This document shows positions 3,721-12,196 of a stretch of DNA of 64,000 nt, one piece after another (position 1 is the first letter of the stretch; every line of letters starts with the position of its first letter). The stretch covers positions 71,470 to 135,469 of the forward strand of contig PYJD01000010.1 in the NCBI GenBank assembly GCA_003635315.1, read 5' to 3'. The notes below the pieces were generated by a model. The model saw nothing but the letters and a program-made list of their open reading frames with translations, was not told the origin of the DNA and did no database searches. The translations under genes and the position numbers were made by a program. The DNA is from Candidatus Poribacteria bacterium. GTDB taxonomy: Bacteria > Poribacteria > WGA-4E > WGA-3G.

Positions 3721-3872
3721 ATCTATCATTCCATTTCTAATAGATAAGGCATATTTGTGTATTTGTAAGTTTATCCTCAATTTCTGAATGTTATAGGTGT
3801 ATTGAATTGCGCTGCTACGACGTGTTTTTCTCTTAATTTTTGACGATCAATTTGAAATGGTATAATCTTCTT

Positions 3873-4031
3873 ATATCATTTCTAAATAATGATAGGACAT
3901 TATTTCATAAATCGGTTGTCCGAATACAACACTCTCTTCTGTAGGAGCGACCTCCCGGTCGCGACCAGGATGTCACTCCTACAAAGAAAATCGAGAATCG
4001 GAATGATACTTTGTCAATTAGAAATGGTATT
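3873..4031. mobile_element. MITE family A (ATACCATTTCT/AGAAATGGTAT ends) with GTAG-REP cargo; a second copy at about 3728-3863
   Basis: Terminal inverted repeats; internal GTAGGAGCGACC...GGTCGC...CTCCTAC (3941-3982). Confidence 0.75.
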
Positions 4032-4034
4032 ATT

Positions 4035-4589
4035 ATGGATATGAAAACAGACACCATCCCAATTTATACGATAGGCTACGGAAGTCGTTCTATGTCCGAG
4101 TTTATTGACATTCTTCACCAATATAATATTGCATATCTAATCGATGTTCGGTCAGTGCCACATTCTGGTTATAAGAAGGAATACTCCAAAAAACCGCTGG
4201 CGAAGGAACTCGAACAACACGGCATTCGGTATGTGTATATGGGAGACTTACTCGGTGGAAAACCAGAGGATGAATCTTGTTATGTCGACGGAATTGTTGA
4301 TTACGAAAGGGTGAAGGAGACAGAATTTTTTCAGCGAGGTATTGAACGTCTTCGTGCTGCTTTTTCGCAACAGCAATGTGTCGCACTCATGTGTGCTGAG
4401 GAGAAACCGGAGCATTGCCATCGCACTAAACTCATCAGTACAACCCTCACCGATGAAAATTTACCTGTAATCCATATTGATGAAAACAGTGAGGAGATGA
4501 CCCAGGAGCAGATCATTGATCGGATTACACGTGGACAGATGAATTTATTTGGTGATGAACCATTCTACTCGCGTAAGAAACACACCTAA
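4035..4589 (+). CDS. DUF488 family protein
   Basis: IYTIGYG, LIDVRSVP, LGG and ALMCAEEKPEHCHR motifs. The track start at 4011 lies inside a MITE, so ATG 4035 or 4041 is preferred. Confidence 0.9.
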   Translation: MDMKTDTIPIYTIGYGSRSMSEFIDILHQYNIAYLIDVRSVPHSGYKKEYSKKPLAKELEQHGIRYVYMGDLLGGKPEDESCYVDGIVDYERVKETEFFQRGIERLRAAFSQQQCVALMCAEEKPEHCHRTKLISTTLTDENLPVIHIDENSEEMTQEQIIDRITRGQMNLFGDEPFYSRKKHT

Positions 4590-4593
4590 TCCT

Positions 4594-5082
4594 ATGAAGA
4601 TTAAAATCATTACTATTGGTGTATATGGGTTTGATGAGACAGGTTTTTTTGATGCATTGTGCAACGCAAATGTTGATACGTTCTGTGATATTCGCAACCG
4701 ACGTGGTGTGCGTGGTACGACCTATGCATTCGCGAATAGTAAGCGGTTACAGGCACGACTTGAAGAACTTGGCATTCGATACATCTATAGAAAAGATTTG
4801 GGACCAACAAAAAGTGTCCGAGAAAAGCAAGCTGCAGCGGATAAAGCGACTAAAACCCCCAAACGCAAACGGACTGAACTTGGTGAAGTGTTCATTGAAG
4901 CATATCGGACTGAATGCCTCAATGCTTTCGATCCGCAAAGTTTGCTTGACGAATTAGAATCGGATGCACAAGTTGTAGCATTATTTTGTGTTGAAACTAC
5001 GCCAGAGGCATGCCACCGTTCTTTGGTTGCAGAAAAATTGGCGAATACATTTGATTTGGAGGTAGAAGATATTTTACCGTGA
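4594..5082 (+). CDS. DUF488 family protein (second subtype)
   Basis: IITIGVYG, FCDIR, and ALFCVETTPEACHR motifs; stop overlaps the next start (GTGA). Confidence 0.88.
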   Translation: MKIKIITIGVYGFDETGFFDALCNANVDTFCDIRNRRGVRGTTYAFANSKRLQARLEELGIRYIYRKDLGPTKSVREKQAAADKATKTPKRKRTELGEVFIEAYRTECLNAFDPQSLLDELESDAQVVALFCVETTPEACHRSLVAEKLANTFDLEVEDILP

Positions 5083-8000
5083 GAGTATTGATTGTTGCGA
5101 AAACCCGTATGGGTAAAGGTGCATGTATTGGAGGGATAACCGAAACAGGCAAAAGTGTTCGACTTATTCCGTATAATGCTGATCCACATGACGGTGCTAA
5201 TAGAGAGTATGAAGTTGGGGATGTATGGGAGATAACTGGTGAACCAGAGACTTCATTGACGCCACCGCATAATGAGAACTTTGTTGTTGATAAAAAATCG
5301 CGTATTCGTAGGACGGGAAACACAAAAGGTTTAATAGATACCATTGAACGTATGATGCCACCGAAAAATGGCAACCCGCGAGAACTCTATGAAGGTCTAT
5401 TGAAAACTACAGAGAACGGTTCCTTATACGTCCCTCCTGGAGATGTTATTCCACCTTACAGCACCCTGTTTTGGAGAACAGACAAACAACTCACTCTCGA
5501 AACTGAGAAGAAAAACCTACGCTATCGTTATCCATCGGTAAGCGGTGGTTGTACACTCACCTTCGTCGGTCTTCAAAAACCCCTTAAAACCATTCCTGCA
5601 AACACACTATTACGCTTATCGTTGGCACATTGGTGGCGACCAAATCATTCACCCAACATAGAAGAACGATGTTATGTTCAACTTTCTGGCTGGTTTCTTG
5701 AAGAGGAAAGACAGGTGGAACCTATAACAACTCCTGACCCAAACTCGCCACCAGCCCAAACTGAGACATCATCATTAAAGGTACTCAAGAATGTTTTTGG
5801 ATTTAAACAGTTTCTTCCATTTCAGGAAGAGATTATTGACAGTATTCGCAAAGGGGAAGATACGTTGGTAGTTCTACCGACTGGTGGTGGAAAATCACTC
5901 TGTTACCAACTACCGGCTTGTATCTTTAATGGATTAACCGTTGTGGTTTCACCGCTAATTGCACTTATGCAAGATCAAGTAATACAGTTGGAACAAAAAG
6001 GAATCCGCGCTGCTTTTCTCAACCACATCCTTGAGAAAGAAGAACATGAAGAATATCTCGCTACAATGCAAAAGGTCAGAAATGGTGTAATTAAGCTGCT
6101 TTATATTTCTCCAGAAAGACTTGTACAACGACCTGAAATCCATGTAATGTTGTATGACTCAAATGTTGCATGTCTTGCGATTGACGAAGCCCACTGTATT
6201 TCGCAGTGGGGTCACGATTTCCGGCCGAATTATCGTGAGTTGGACTGGGTTCGTGAGCAATTTCCAAACGCCGTTTGTATTGCCACAACTGCCACAGCGA
6301 CTCCACGAGTCCAAGAGGATATTAAACAATCGCTTAACATCCCAGCAGAAAATCAATTCATTGATAGTTTTAATCGTGAAAATCTCTTTATCTCTATTGA
6401 ACCCCGATTTGAGATACTTGGACAGACATTGGCATATCTGAAAAAACACCCTAATGAATCAGGTATCATCTATTGTCAAAGAAGAAAACATGTAGACTGG
6501 TTGTGTGAGCAGTTAAACACCCACGGAATTTCCGCACTACCCTATCATGCAGGACTGAATCCACAAGAGCGTACACAGAATCAAGATGTTTTTATCAACG
6601 GTAATATCGACGTGATTGTGGCTACAATTGCCTTCGGAATGGGTATTGATAAACCAGATGTTCGGTTTGTCTTACATGCGTGGTTACCGAGTGATTTGGA
6701 GTCTTATTACCAGGAAATTGGTCGTTCTGGACGTGATAGTGAACGTGCAGAGTGTCTCCTGTTGTTCAATCCAGATGATGAAGATACGATTAACGAATTC
6801 ATTGATGATGGACATCCATCGCAACGTGAAGGACGGATCGAGAATTTGCAAAAACTTATTGCCTGGGTAAATTCAAAAGAATGCCGCCGTAAAGCACTAC
6901 TAAACTATTTTGGGGAACAATACGAAAACGAAGATTGCGGTATGTGTGATAACTGTTGTAGCGCGAAAATGGAAAAGACAGATTTAACAACGCCTGCACA
7001 GAAGTTTCTATCCTGCCTTCATAGGGTTAATGAAAGTGAGACTAATGATGTTTTCGACAAAGCATATTTTTTTGGTACTTTACAAGATAAAAATACGAGT
7101 ATCCCCGTTTGCCTACCATCAGGTATTTTATATATCATTGACATTTTACGTGGTGAGAAGCAAGAGGAAATTATCGAAAATAAGCATCACAAACTTAGCA
7201 CATGGGGAAAAGGCATGGAATATAGCAAAGCCCAATGGTGCTACCTTGCTCTGCAATTCTTTCAAAACAATCTGTATAGACGGGATGAGGAAGATGGGAG
7301 TCTTCAATTGACAGATAAGGGTTGGAAAGTCAACACAATAAGAATTACCGCTGATGATAGGTTTTGGGGTTTTCCGGTAGATTTGGTGACTTCTGTGTCG
7401 GAAAATAGTATAACTGTAGAATTGAATACCTATGAGACCGATTCCGACGAACAGTACGATTATGATCCCGTACTTTTTGATAGACTTCGTCAAAAACGTA
7501 GCAGTATAGCAGAGGAGGATAGAACAAGAGCATCAAATATATTGCCGCGTGATTCATTGAAAGAGATGGCAACCCTACTACCACAATCCTTGGATGAATT
7601 TGGACAGATTAAAGGTATTGGAAAAGTACGAATGAAATATGCTGATGATTTTTTACCGATTATACGTGCATATTGCGAAGAACATGGAGTTGATTCAACA
7701 GATCGTGAAACTGATGAACTGAATACTACCGAATCAGATCAGGAACCAAAAGGAATTTCAGTTGAAAACGAAACTGATATTTCAAACAATTCAGAATCAG
7801 CATCTCAAAAACTGAACACGCAGACTCTGGAAATATTAGAGCGACTACGCGATAAACGCAAAACTGTGGTAGATAAAGAAAAGGTAAGGGCATTCCGTAT
7901 TTTTTCAGACAAGGTCCTGAAAGAAATGGCAATTCATCTCCCACGAACCAAAGAAGCACTTTTGCAGATTCATGGGATTGGACCAGTAAAAGCTGAAAAA

Positions 8001-8360
8001 TACGCCGATGACTTTTTGCCAATTATTCGAGCATATTGTGAGGAACACGGAATTGATACAGTTGATGATGTGCATGAACCATTGAATACTCATGATACTA
8101 TAACCGATAAACAAAGTATATTTTCCCAAGAGCTTTTTGAACTACTTCGAGAAATGCGGAAAACAATTGCTGACGAAGACGGAGTTCCGACGTTTGTCAT
8201 ATTCTGGGATAGGACGTTGAAAGAAATGGCAACCTATTTTCCAAAAACTAAAGAAGAATTTATACAGATTGAACGTGTTAATTCCCATAAAACTGAAAAA
8301 TATGCCCATATCTTTTTGCCCATTATCCGCGAGTATTGCCAAGAACATGGTATTGATTAA
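5079..8360 (+). CDS. recQ: Dual-OB-domain / RecQ helicase fusion with RQC and three HRDC domains
   Basis: N-terminal ~210 aa (IVAKTRM..GACIGG...RLIP...LLRLSLAHWW...CYVQLSGW). Then LPTGGGKS, DEAHCISQWGHDFRP, QEIGRSGRD, CRR...CGMCDNC and three HRDC repeats each ending IIRxYCxEHG. Confidence 0.9.
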   Translation: MRVLIVAKTRMGKGACIGGITETGKSVRLIPYNADPHDGANREYEVGDVWEITGEPETSLTPPHNENFVVDKKSRIRRTGNTKGLIDTIERMMPPKNGNPRELYEGLLKTTENGSLYVPPGDVIPPYSTLFWRTDKQLTLETEKKNLRYRYPSVSGGCTLTFVGLQKPLKTIPANTLLRLSLAHWWRPNHSPNIEERCYVQLSGWFLEEERQVEPITTPDPNSPPAQTETSSLKVLKNVFGFKQFLPFQEEIIDSIRKGEDTLVVLPTGGGKSLCYQLPACIFNGLTVVVSPLIALMQDQVIQLEQKGIRAAFLNHILEKEEHEEYLATMQKVRNGVIKLLYISPERLVQRPEIHVMLYDSNVACLAIDEAHCISQWGHDFRPNYRELDWVREQFPNAVCIATTATATPRVQEDIKQSLNIPAENQFIDSFNRENLFISIEPRFEILGQTLAYLKKHPNESGIIYCQRRKHVDWLCEQLNTHGISALPYHAGLNPQERTQNQDVFINGNIDVIVATIAFGMGIDKPDVRFVLHAWLPSDLESYYQEIGRSGRDSERAECLLLFNPDDEDTINEFIDDGHPSQREGRIENLQKLIAWVNSKECRRKALLNYFGEQYENEDCGMCDNCCSAKMEKTDLTTPAQKFLSCLHRVNESETNDVFDKAYFFGTLQDKNTSIPVCLPSGILYIIDILRGEKQEEIIENKHHKLSTWGKGMEYSKAQWCYLALQFFQNNLYRRDEEDGSLQLTDKGWKVNTIRITADDRFWGFPVDLVTSVSENSITVELNTYETDSDEQYDYDPVLFDRLRQKRSSIAEEDRTRASNILPRDSLKEMATLLPQSLDEFGQIKGIGKVRMKYADDFLPIIRAYCEEHGVDSTDRETDELNTTESDQEPKGISVENETDISNNSESASQKLNTQTLEILERLRDKRKTVVDKEKVRAFRIFSDKVLKEMAIHLPRTKEALLQIHGIGPVKAEKYADDFLPIIRAYCEEHGIDTVDDVHEPLNTHDTITDKQSIFSQELFELLREMRKTIADEDGVPTFVIFWDRTLKEMATYFPKTKEEFIQIERVNSHKTEKYAHIFLPIIREYCQEHGID

Positions 8361-8526
8361 TACACCTATTTTACTCTGAACCATAAGTATTTGGACACCT
8401 GGGATACTTCAGAAATATCGCATTGCCTACCTGATAGATATTTCCTAAATTCCGCATGAGAACAAACTGGAATGCCACGATATTCACTTTGTGAACTATA
8501 TACCACTGCAAAACTACTAATTGCTA

Positions 8527-9358: not shown

Positions 9359-9973
9359 TACAATTATAGTTCCTGAAGATACATTTTCAGATGATGACTC
9401 CTATAATAAGAAACCAATAAAAACCCATACTCCAAAGTACGATCTGGACACAGGATTTCAAGAATTAGAAGATGAAATTTGGGAACAGATTCAAGTTCAA
9501 GAGGTTGAGTCAACACCGGAAATTCGTGTTTTGATGTCGCTGCTTACATTGTGGAGAAAAAGGGTGCTATGAGTACTATGAAACTCCAAAAATTGGTATA
9601 CTACAGTCAAGCGTGGTCATTGGTGTGGGATGAAAAGCCTCTCTTTAAGGAAGATATTGAGGCATGGGCAAATGGTCCAGTTGTTAGAGATCTGTTCTAT
9701 TATCATCGCGGGAGATATGAAATAGATACCGTGGAAATTGGCAATCCGCGTCTATTAGATCAGAAACAACAGGAGACTATTGATGCTGTGCTTGATTACT
9801 ATGGGGATAAATCTGCCCAATGGTTAATTGAACTTACACACATGGAAGATCCATGGATCGAAGCAAGGGAAGGTTTGCATCCACTGGAACGGGGAGATAA
9901 GGTTATACCATTGGACGCGATGGCAGTTTATTATAGTTCTTTACCTGTTGAGGATGAAGTTGTAGATGAATAA
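9342..9973 (+). CDS. Panacea (DUF4065/SocA) antitoxin with an acidic N-terminal extension, interrupted by a -1 frameshift at the T4 run 9529-9532
   Basis: KLQKLVYYSQAW, EAWANGPVV and LTHMEDPW motifs. The conserved N-terminal FDVAAYI lies upstream of the track start with no initiator in that frame; adding one T joins it to ORF 9342. Confidence 0.8.
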
Positions 9974-10951: not shown

Positions 10952-12196
10952 ATGTCAAGACAAAGAACTGTTAAGTACCCCCCGAAGCGAGGGAAACTCA
11001 CAAAACACCAGGTCAAAAAGGCAATAGAGAAGGTTGTCCGGGAGAGACTTGAATGCGGGACAGAAGAATCTTATATACCTACTTACCCCGCGCAGTGCAG
11101 CCCACTACTTGAGGCAATAGCCGACGCATTAGACATCTCTGAAAACCACCATGCACAAGTTCTAAAGTTTTATGAATCGCTTGGTGCATGGTTACAACGG
11201 GACGAATCTATCGTTGCTTGCTATATGCCTAAAATTTATCCACACGGTTCTTTTTTACTCGCTACAGTTATAAAACCCATTTCTGGTGCTGAAGAGTATA
11301 ACATAGACCTTGTCAGTGAGTTGAATCTCCAGAAAACCGAGATTAGTCAAGAGAAACTAAAGTATTTAGTCGGTACAGAAATCAAGTCTTATGCCCAAGT
11401 TAACAACCTGAATTCTCAACCTAAAGAAAGGCAGCGATGTTGGATCCTGAATTATGCAGATGGTTTTCAGTTCCACGCGAATATCTTACCTGCGATACCG
11501 GATGCCAAACCGTTCAAACTATTCCTTGAATCAAGGGAAAACTCACCTTCTAACTGGACGGATTCCGCTATTGCAATTACGGACACTACTCTCCCCAATT
11601 ATTCACAGATCACTCCTGACTGGTCCCATAGTAATCCAAAAGGATATGCAGAATGGTTCCGAAGTCGCATGAGAAAAAGAGTTAGCGCGATACGACAGTC
11701 TCTAAGCCGAAGGAAGATTGACAAATTACCCGACTATAAAGTGAAAACCCCACTTCAGCGAGCTATTCAAATTTTGAAACGGCACTGCGACATTTGGTTT
11801 GATAAAAACCAATCCACCTATGATAAAAAGGCGAAACCAGCCTCTATTATCATCACGACGCTTGCGGCGCATGCCTACTATAACGAGAATGATCTTCAAC
11901 AAACATTACTGAAGATTTTAACACAAATGCCGCACTATATTGAATATCAGGATAACGGGGTAACTCTTATACGCAATCCAGTGAACCCATTTGAGAACTT
12001 CGCAGATAATTGGCAGGAGTATCCAAGCCGAAAAGAGAGTTTCATGGATTGGCTTAAGCAGGTGCAACGTGACCTGACCGATGCGTTGGAACTGAGTGAT
12101 ATTCACAGTATTGAAAAATCACTAAAATCCTACTTGGGTGAACAAACTATCAAAGAAGGACTACAGAATCTCTCTAAGCGGAAGGGAGGAGTCTGA
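10952..12196 (+). CDS. cGAS/DncV-like nucleotidyltransferase (CD-NTase, SMODS) with a degenerate active site
   Basis: IYPHGSF..ATVIKP, EYNIDL, RCWILNY, FHANILPAIP, SNPKGYAEWF, KTPLQRAIQILKRH, SIIITTLAAHAY and NPVNPFENFAD motifs; GGGAGG RBS. Confidence 0.9.
   Translation: MSRQRTVKYPPKRGKLTKHQVKKAIEKVVRERLECGTEESYIPTYPAQCSPLLEAIADALDISENHHAQVLKFYESLGAWLQRDESIVACYMPKIYPHGSFLLATVIKPISGAEEYNIDLVSELNLQKTEISQEKLKYLVGTEIKSYAQVNNLNSQPKERQRCWILNYADGFQFHANILPAIPDAKPFKLFLESRENSPSNWTDSAIAITDTTLPNYSQITPDWSHSNPKGYAEWFRSRMRKRVSAIRQSLSRRKIDKLPDYKVKTPLQRAIQILKRHCDIWFDKNQSTYDKKAKPASIIITTLAAHAYYNENDLQQTLLKILTQMPHYIEYQDNGVTLIRNPVNPFENFADNWQEYPSRKESFMDWLKQVQRDLTDALELSDIHSIEKSLKSYLGEQTIKEGLQNLSKRKGGV

Follow-up and report, generated by a model that had tools for sequence, protein, structure and literature searches.

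A RecQ helicase gene that begins with an additional domain and overlaps a pair of uncharacterized genes raises the question of whether the three products work together and, if so, on which DNA. Such an arrangement occurs in a 64,000-nucleotide stretch of contig PYJD01000010.1 from a Candidatus Poribacteria bacterium (assembly GCA_003635315.1), referred to here as the window. Between positions 4035 and 8360, all on the plus strand, lie two DUF488 genes, one encoding a long paralogue (D1) and one a short paralogue (D2), followed by ORF3, in which a dual-OB domain, DuOB, is fused to RecQ (Table 1). The genes form a fixed, translationally coupled unit with a wide but patchy distribution. The explanation tentatively placed first is that their products make up a single DNA-processing machine, in which RecQ drives the processing of DNA ends or adducts as an accessory genome-maintenance function acting on the cell's own replication or repair intermediates. 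The leaning toward maintenance over anti-phage defense is slight.

A Coupled Operon Ending in a Complete RecQ

The D1 stop codon and the ATG of D2 are separated by 4 nt, and the GTG start of ORF3 overlaps the D2 stop as GTGA; the identical start and 4-nt overlap are seen again in relatives. An earlier note made from the letters of the window (the sequence-only reading) had described two tightly coupled DUF488 genes overlapping a RecQ with three HRDC domains and an extra N-terminal domain. Open reading frame positions, Pfam, and the 4-nt junctions agree on the first part of this description, and Pfam and NCBIfam agree on the second. Judged by sequence, the RecQ portion is canonical and complete, with helicase core, zinc-binding module, RQC, and three HRDC domains. 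ORF3 scores 719.7 bits against the NCBIfam recQ model TIGR01389, for which the equivalog cut-off is 640.2, and residues 1020–1077, within HRDC domain 3, additionally match the Pfam family Helicase_Sgs1. Bacterial RecQ of the Escherichia coli type (TIGR01389) has the same core, zinc-binding, RQC, and HRDC domains, but ORF3 differs from it in the 205-aa N-terminal DuOB, in its obligatory operon partners, and in having three HRDC domains rather than one. Fused relatives have from 0 to 4 HRDC domains, or an HTH_40 or Sipho_Gp157 tail.

Conservation of the Fusion and Its Linkage

One genome per species was scanned, which gave 481 DuOB-encoding loci; the best 80 were kept. The DuOB frame runs on into a RecQ core in all 80. 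D1 followed by D2, detected with hidden Markov models built from D1 and D2 hits, immediately precedes the fused gene in the same orientation in 77; in the remaining three (L051, L107, and L109) the contig is cut less than 520 nt upstream. By record titles, 44 of the 80 loci come from Poribacteria, 21 from Chloroflexota lineages, 5 from Latescibacterota, 4 from Verrucomicrobiota, and 2 from Planctomycetota; the rest that are named comprise 1 from Versatilivorator and 1 from Terriglobia. Broken copies also occur, with D1 disrupted in L072, L101, and L113 and the helicase split in L039 and L078 and interrupted in G001. The sequence-only reading had allowed that the fusion might be unique to this assembly or the linkage not conserved; both notions are refuted because all 80 loci are fused, 77 are linked, and stand-alone cassettes keep the same order.

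The same survey bears on the view that the recQ is an ordinary housekeeping gene whose two DUF488 neighbors are unrelated to it, with no joint function. The NCBI product name, simply “DNA helicase RecQ,” and the canonical RecQ part speak for this view, which is nevertheless scarcely credible given the fixed order, the 4-nt junctions, and co-occurrence in 77/77 testable loci across phyla. Moreover, DuOB and DUF488 travel together without RecQ in viral contigs and on a plasmid, and roughly half of the genomes in the genus lack the fused gene. A coincidental recQ-DUF488 neighborhood is contradicted by the linkage survey.

Stand-alone forms are numerous among proteins, and the family is rare on mobile DNA. 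A HMMER search over 1.84 billion representatives returned 745 DuOB proteins (E ≤0.001), mostly stand-alone and about 200 aa long. The 2.9 million viral contigs of IMG/VR contain three DuOB loci, all stand-alone and all in the order D1-D2-DuOB, and only 1 of 72,556 plasmids, Rhodothermus marinus pRMAR01, encodes DuOB, again as a stand-alone D1-D2-DuOB cassette. On that plasmid (NC_013502.1, 46430-48221; L121) the cassette is directly upstream of cas1-cas2, a J-domain gene, cas6, csx2, and csm6, and an SSB gene lies 2 kb upstream of it. The stand-alone DuOB-DUF488 cassette, known as the PDC-M45 candidate, has the same two paralogue types, the same DuOB, and the same order as the locus in the window, where, by contrast, DuOB forms the N-terminal part of a complete RecQ that has three HRDC domains.

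Long DuOB representatives include, by Pfam, DuOB-RecQ fusions ending in HRDC, HTH_40, or Sipho_Gp157, and one DuOB-RecQ fusion is named from Litorilinea sp. Other fusions join DuOB to an HSP70-like ATPase (P0199), to a RecD/PIF1-like helicase with TBP-TOTE (P0225), and to HRDC alone (P0138). P0225, a TOTE/PDC-M16A helicase, resembles ORF3 in carrying an N-terminal DuOB on a DNA helicase, but it is a superfamily 1, RecD/PIF1-like enzyme with a TBP-TOTE tail, whereas ORF3 is a RecQ. Fusion to this other helicase and to HRDC alone argues that DuOB is part of a DNA machine. In one Poribacteria family, Sipho_Gp157 replaces the HRDC tail of 927-aa RecQ fusions (P0125; L075:7001-9784).

A protein collection clustered at 90% identity holds 869 clusters of 601–1913 aa with an N terminus of the ORF3 type. 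Among the 120 clusters listed, all have RecQ helicase Pfam domains and 119 also have DuOB; the source organism, where named, is Candidatus Poribacteria. RecQ-fused forms group weakly in a DuOB tree (14/15 inside a 25-tip group, support 0.49), and for this reason no single fusion event is claimed. Within Poribacteria, DuOB is encoded by 114 of 176 genomes, always as one match, and in 103 of the 114 the frame is at least 590 aa long. By genus, it is found in 21/39 genomes of g1, 57/65 of g13, 9/10 of g5, and 13/20 of g6. Among the genomes of 41 relatives, 19 encode DuOB, mostly in open frames of 830–1130 aa.

DuOB as a Predicted Tandem OB Module

The ORF3 domain scores 111.4 bits against the Pfam family PF22557 (gathering cut-off 27 bits), covering profile positions 1–210 of 210. 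Its AlphaFold2 model is all-β with two barrels (predicted local distance difference test score, pLDDT, 93.4; predicted TM-score, pTM, 0.89). In a Foldseek search against the PDB, the tandem-OB HIN-200 domains come out on top (E 3.5e-5 to 1e-3, TM 0.33–0.41), followed by Teb1, POT1, and RPA. The VIA structure search likens residues 1–80 to the OB folds of RPA, SSB, PriB, and MCM with Z of 6–7.5, values that are middling by the tool's note, which draws its line for common arrangements at Z 8. Because the model and its Foldseek and VIA matches concur, DuOB is, as modeled, OB-like and dual, and the worry that the N-terminal ~210 aa might not be OB-like is dispelled. HIN-200 proteins (AIM2/IFI16) and RPA/POT1, the best structural matches of the model, likewise have two consecutive OB folds. 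They differ from DuOB in sequence, a PDB profile search with the DuOB sequence giving 0 matches, and the TM-scores are only 0.33–0.41.

Unlike these proteins, DuOB has its own invariant set of Cys, His, Glu, and Arg residues. An alignment of 30 DuOB sequences (A1) contains 16 invariant positions: T9, C16, R28, P63, H64, E66, W132, G164, R179, S181, L182, W186, C198, Q201, S203, and G204. An unlikely reading gives some of these residues (Cys16, His64, Glu66, and Cys198) an active part, with DuOB as a sensor or catalytic module that would recognize or cleave a DNA end or base adduct while a clamp-tethered DUF488 pair carries out an undescribed cysteine-dependent chemistry on DNA termini. Such a pathway might serve repair in some lineages and immunity in others, and, if real, would be a new DNA-processing pathway coupled to RecQ.

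The DUF488 Pair

Both paralogues were said in the sequence-only reading to have intact CxE...CHR motifs. These can be read in the sequence, with P-E-H-C128-H-R130 in D1 and P-E-A-C140-H-R142 in D2. Across 67 D1 and 54 D2 sequences, conservation of the C-x-E...P-x-x-C-H-R residues is 97% or higher; the Cys...CHR residues are invariant in 18-sequence alignments of D1 (A2) and D2 (A3). In D1, an H-I-D-E stretch is likewise invariant and a C-terminal tail is present. The D1 orthologues, at 51–83% identity, are the first gene of the cassette in the 17 loci aligned (A2). The mean column identity of D2 is 72% (18 orthologues). Against the Pfam family DUF488-N3a (PF22751, the “active DUF488-N3 subclade,” cut-off 27), D2 is barely over the line at 28.0 bits and D1 is below it at 24.7.

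DUF488 is reportedly assigned to the rhodanese-phosphatase superfamily (Rossmann-like, kin of the Cys phosphatases) by Burroughs and Aravind 2023. PDB sequence-profile searches with D1 and D2 gave 0 matches. The AlphaFold2 model of D1 (pLDDT 85) has a best Foldseek E of 3.8e-3, with no row at or below 1e-3, and its rows mix DUSP13, DUSP26, PFA-DSP1, and PIR1 with tetrapyrrole-methylase-like folds. These weak rows are compatible with that assignment and are no proof of it.

The D1 tail carries a further motif. Of 65 D1 tails, 64 fit the pattern Qxx[LMV]F and 43 the strict pattern Q[LMIV][SDNTEA][LMI]F; a QxxLF-type motif occurs in 0/54 D2 sequences and in 0/67 D1 sequences outside the tail. The R. 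marinus D1 tail reads QLNLF, whereas L118, L036, and L019 have a degenerate motif or none. The motif resembles the bacterial β-clamp-binding pentapeptide, QL[SD]LF.

A Proposed Division of Labor

The reading of the three products as one machine is favored because DuOB is fused to RecQ at 80/80 loci and linked to D1-D2 at 77/80, because the stand-alone cassettes keep the same gene order, and because the active-site residues are so strongly conserved, the fold of DuOB is like that of DNA binders, and the tail motif distinguishes D1 (64/65) from D2 (0/54). In such a machine, RecQ would unwind DNA in the 3′–5′ direction at a fork, gap, or end, and DuOB would keep hold of the junction or of the single strand laid bare. 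As putative phosphatase-fold enzymes, D1 and D2 may take off or transfer a group attached through phosphate or sugar-phosphate at the DNA end or adduct. The sequence-only reading had similarly inferred that a module binding and unwinding single-stranded DNA would deliver modified or damaged DNA to the DUF488 enzymes. Binding of the C-terminal QxxLF to the β sliding clamp could place D1 at primer-template junctions. In Poribacteria, the cassette may have replaced canonical RecQ.

Relation to DarT

A passage of Iyer et al. 2022 (PMC9503650) proposes ribose-linked phosphate processing for DUF4326, a sister family of DUF488, and this proposal is in keeping with a more specialized substrate. The cassette might deal specifically with ADP-ribosylated single-stranded DNA of the DarT type, RecQ and DuOB exposing and holding the strand and the DUF488 enzymes processing the phosphate moieties of ADP-ribose. 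DarT itself is common in Poribacteria. Of 176 genomes, 97 have a homologue, frequently several, and the frames are often ~400 aa long. By genome, DuOB and DarT occur together in 71, DuOB only in 43, DarT only in 26, and neither in 36, giving an odds ratio of 2.3 that takes no account of kinship and disappears when only the genus is considered (20/2/14/4, p 0.38). The genome-level co-occurrence is therefore loose, and the 43 genomes with the cassette and without DarT tell against a dedicated role.

Linkage offers no help to this alternative. A phmmer search of 103 DuOB loci and the 64-kb window, with the genome's own DarT::Macro as the query, found no DarT/Macro homologue, which lends no support to the link with DarT/DarG drawn in the sequence-only reading. 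The related claim that darTG is absent stands for the locus and the window and falls for the genome, in which contig C26 encodes a single-chain DarT::Macro fusion (L122:1468-2640, plus strand; Pfam DarT 8.2e-47, Macro 2.8e-7). The presence of this fusion in the same genome favors an ADP-ribosyl-DNA substrate, but the DarT in question is already joined to its own Macro antidote domain. DarT-DarG acts on single-stranded DNA, and yet it is unlinked to the cassette in every locus examined and the genes have no similarity. Taken together, a role confined to ADP-ribosylated DNA appears quite improbable. In two genomes of different families (G006:C1 and G084:C1), DarT lies ~112 kb from the DuOB gene (111,857 and 111,946 bases), a spacing that is probably due to chance.

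Other RecQ Genes

The sequence-only reading had proposed looking for a separate recQ, and a second RecQ-family helicase of 587 aa is indeed present in the same genome (G000:C10:16039-17115; L002:1381-3144). It has DEAD and Helicase_C domains, a zinc module at its extreme C terminus, and neither RQC nor HRDC. Genes of this type occur in 22 of the 24 genomes drawn from the genus; of the other two, G002 has only the fused gene and G024 has no match. Its sequence and spread suggest that the 587-aa gene is the lineage's core RecQ-like gene. Ten matches among the 41 relatives exceed the NCBIfam recQ cut-off, and all ten are the DuOB-fused gene. Five fusion-bearing genomes from other phyla (G176–G180) were also checked: a second canonical RecQ above the cut-off accompanies the fusion in two (G177 and G179), a weaker RecQ-like gene is found in G180, and the fusion is the sole RecQ in G176 and G178.

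Maintenance or Defense?

The same machine could instead be an anti-phage or anti-plasmid defense system of the PDC-M45 type, in which DuOB-RecQ would recognize and unwind foreign DNA as it invades or replicates, and the DUF488 pair would block its replication or packaging by altering its ends or nucleotides. This is a serious possibility, held a little less readily than maintenance. Its most direct support is from the PADLOC models for defense candidates, with D1 matching PDC-M45B (1.6e-49) and D2 matching PDC-M45C (6.9e-12); both match PDC-M19A as well. The DuOB domain of the window by itself gives 0 matches to PADLOC models at E up to 1, none of 15 stand-alone DuOBs matches, and PDC-M45A is absent among the best 25 of the 35 PADLOC matches of ORF3. 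On these matches, the full three-gene PDC-M45 call is not obtained at this locus.

A literature search of the library available found no publication on PDC-M45, DUF488-N3, PF22557, or PF22751, none joining DuOB with DarT, nothing relevant joining DUF488 with rhodanese, and no experimental test of the defense role. The DuOB and DUF488-N3a Pfam families are said to stem from the 2023 work of Burroughs and Aravind, the abstract of which reportedly predicts conflict roles for the clade. The DuOB-DUF488 cassette family is itself a computational prediction. According to the main text of the Payne et al. 2024 preprint, the PDC set consists of 145 untested candidates, found through their embedding in BREX, DISARM, and type I restriction-modification systems, which favors defense as the inferred role; that main text makes no mention of PDC-M45, DUF488, PDC-M19, or RecQ. 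In contrast to PDC-M45, the locus in the window does not sit within a BREX, DISARM, or type I restriction-modification system.

Gene neighborhoods were surveyed with PADLOC (E ≤1e-10) for 127 neighbors at 22 diverse loci, leaving out 12 neighbors of L038 and L046. Specific-looking matches adjoin about 4 of the 22 loci: L093 (PDC-S01), L106 (BrxD-like, PDC-S62), L116 (mad3/8), and perhaps L102 (kinase). A defense-island setting is thus not general. Neighbors sampled in Poribacteria include miaA, GNAT, a SpoIIE phosphatase, pyrroloquinoline quinone (PQQ) propellers, a zinc peptidase, and an AAA_35/PDDEXK_9 ATPase.

Several considerations incline the balance toward maintenance. It is preferred because ORF3 exceeds the RecQ equivalog cut-off and all 10 such matches in the relatives are the fused gene; because the cassette is single-copy and frequent in Poribacteria (114/176), being near-core in one genus (57/65 in g13); because its neighbors are mostly housekeeping genes (miaA, GNAT, peptidases), with defense genes at about 4/22 loci; and because mobile DNA seldom carries the family (3 loci among 2.9 million viral contigs, 1 of 72,556 plasmids). 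The scarcity of defense genes among the neighbors and the single, near-core copy also count directly against a defense system, as do the DuOBs without a PADLOC match and the clamp-binding-like peptide, a kind of motif commoner in replisome-linked repair factors.

Other findings weigh against maintenance or weaken parts of its mechanism, and most of them strengthen the case for defense. In addition to the matches of D1 and D2 to defense-candidate models, DuOB is fused to a TOTE/PDC-M16A helicase (P0225), and the R. marinus cassette abuts cas1-cas2. A CBASS cyclase (2.4e-122) and a Panacea antitoxin domain are encoded 1–3 kb downstream of the operon in the window. The distribution crosses at least 6 phyla by record titles and is patchy even within the organism's own genus (11/24 genomes, and 21/39 in a larger set). 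In two of the five fusion-bearing genomes checked in other phyla, a separate canonical RecQ exists beside the fused gene. As for the mechanism, the clamp reading of the D1 tail draws on a motif of only five residues, and the phosphatase fold of DUF488 on recall and weak Foldseek rows (best E 3.8e-3).

RecQ helicases are central to genome stability, and in this phylum the canonical RecQ is welded to an additional domain and tied to two uncharacterized enzymes. If the DUF488 pair does process DNA ends or adducts, this would be the first biochemical function for a very widespread family and a new way to couple unwinding with end chemistry. If the cassette is instead a defense system, it would amount to immunity built on a helicase, with an effector chemistry that is new. 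In either case the fused form points to the working partners, and the Cys motifs, Walker A, and the QxxLF tail provide mutational handles.

Genomic Surroundings

Upstream of the operon, on the minus strand, are infC, rpmI, rplT, and pheS. Downstream, a 223-aa gene is followed by the SocA_Panacea protein, the oligonucleotide cyclase, the truncated AAA ATPase, and a trypsin-like protease. No CBASS effector gene was identified near the cyclase. The flanks are not syntenic with those of relatives except for the AAA_35/PDDEXK_9 ATPase; at many Poribacteria loci (among them L041, L045, and L047), a full-length form of this ATPase (538–576 aa) lies convergently right after the helicase gene.

Table 1. 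Positions in the window of the operon, its parts, and neighboring features
Feature	Position	Strand	Basis
σ70-like promoter candidate, TTGAAA-16-TATCAT, upstream of D1	3852..3879	+	Consensus match
D1, DUF488 long paralogue, 184 aa, ATG start	4035..4589	+	Pfam DUF488 (PF04343) 2.1e-23, 83.6 bits (cut-off 22.2)
D1 active-site motif, C120-A-E122-x2-P125-E126-x-C128-H129-R130	4392..4424	+	Alignments
D1 C-terminal QMNLF peptide, β-clamp-binding-like	4536..4550	+	Motif scan of D1 tails
D2, DUF488 short paralogue, 162 aa, ATG start	4594..5082	+	Pfam DUF488 1.7e-13, 51.7 bits (cut-off 22.2)
D2 active-site motif, C132-V-E134-x2-P137-x-A-C140-H141-R142	4987..5019	+	Alignments
ORF3, DuOB::RecQ fusion, 1093 aa, GTG start	5079..8360	+	Pfam, NCBIfam
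DuOB dual-OB domain, residues 1-205	5079..5693	+	Pfam PF22557 8.4e-32
RecQ superfamily 2 helicase core, DEAD and Helicase_C	5817..6734	+	Pfam, NCBIfam, motifs on sequence
Walker A, PTGGGKS, residues 267-273	5877-5897	+	Sequence motif
DEAH, residues 369-372	6183-6194	+	Sequence motif
RecQ zinc-binding module (RecQ_Zn_bind)	6774-6959	+	Pfam and sequence
RQC winged helix	7122-7331	+	Pfam and sequence
HRDC domain 1	7461..7691	+	Pfam; borders set from repeat sequence
HRDC domain 2	7824..8054	+	Pfam; borders set from repeat sequence
HRDC domain 3	8124..8357	+	Pfam; borders set from repeat sequence
SocA_Panacea antitoxin-domain protein	9551-9973	+	Domain match; 1 kb upstream of cyclase
CBASS-type oligonucleotide cyclase	10952-12196	+	PADLOC Cyclase 2.4e-122; Pfam DncV-like, SMODS weak
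Truncated AAA_35/PDDEXK_9 ATPase remnant, 200 aa	12318-12920	-	Comparison with relatives

The promoter candidate ahead of D1 is weak by itself because the region contains fewer promoter-consensus sites (10) than shuffled sequences lead one to expect (18.2). A look-up of sequencing runs for positions 3900-8400 returned none. Between the promoter candidate and the D1 start is a 44-nt GC-rich palindrome (3940-3983) belonging to a dispersed repeat: with up to 3 mismatches allowed, the genome has 60 matches to the 22-nt core of the palindrome and 0 to a reversed control. Some of these copies form tandem rows with a period of 78 nt (C10:169587, C15:9327, and C50:69328), and the family could represent repetitive extragenic palindromic (REP)-like elements or another sort of array.

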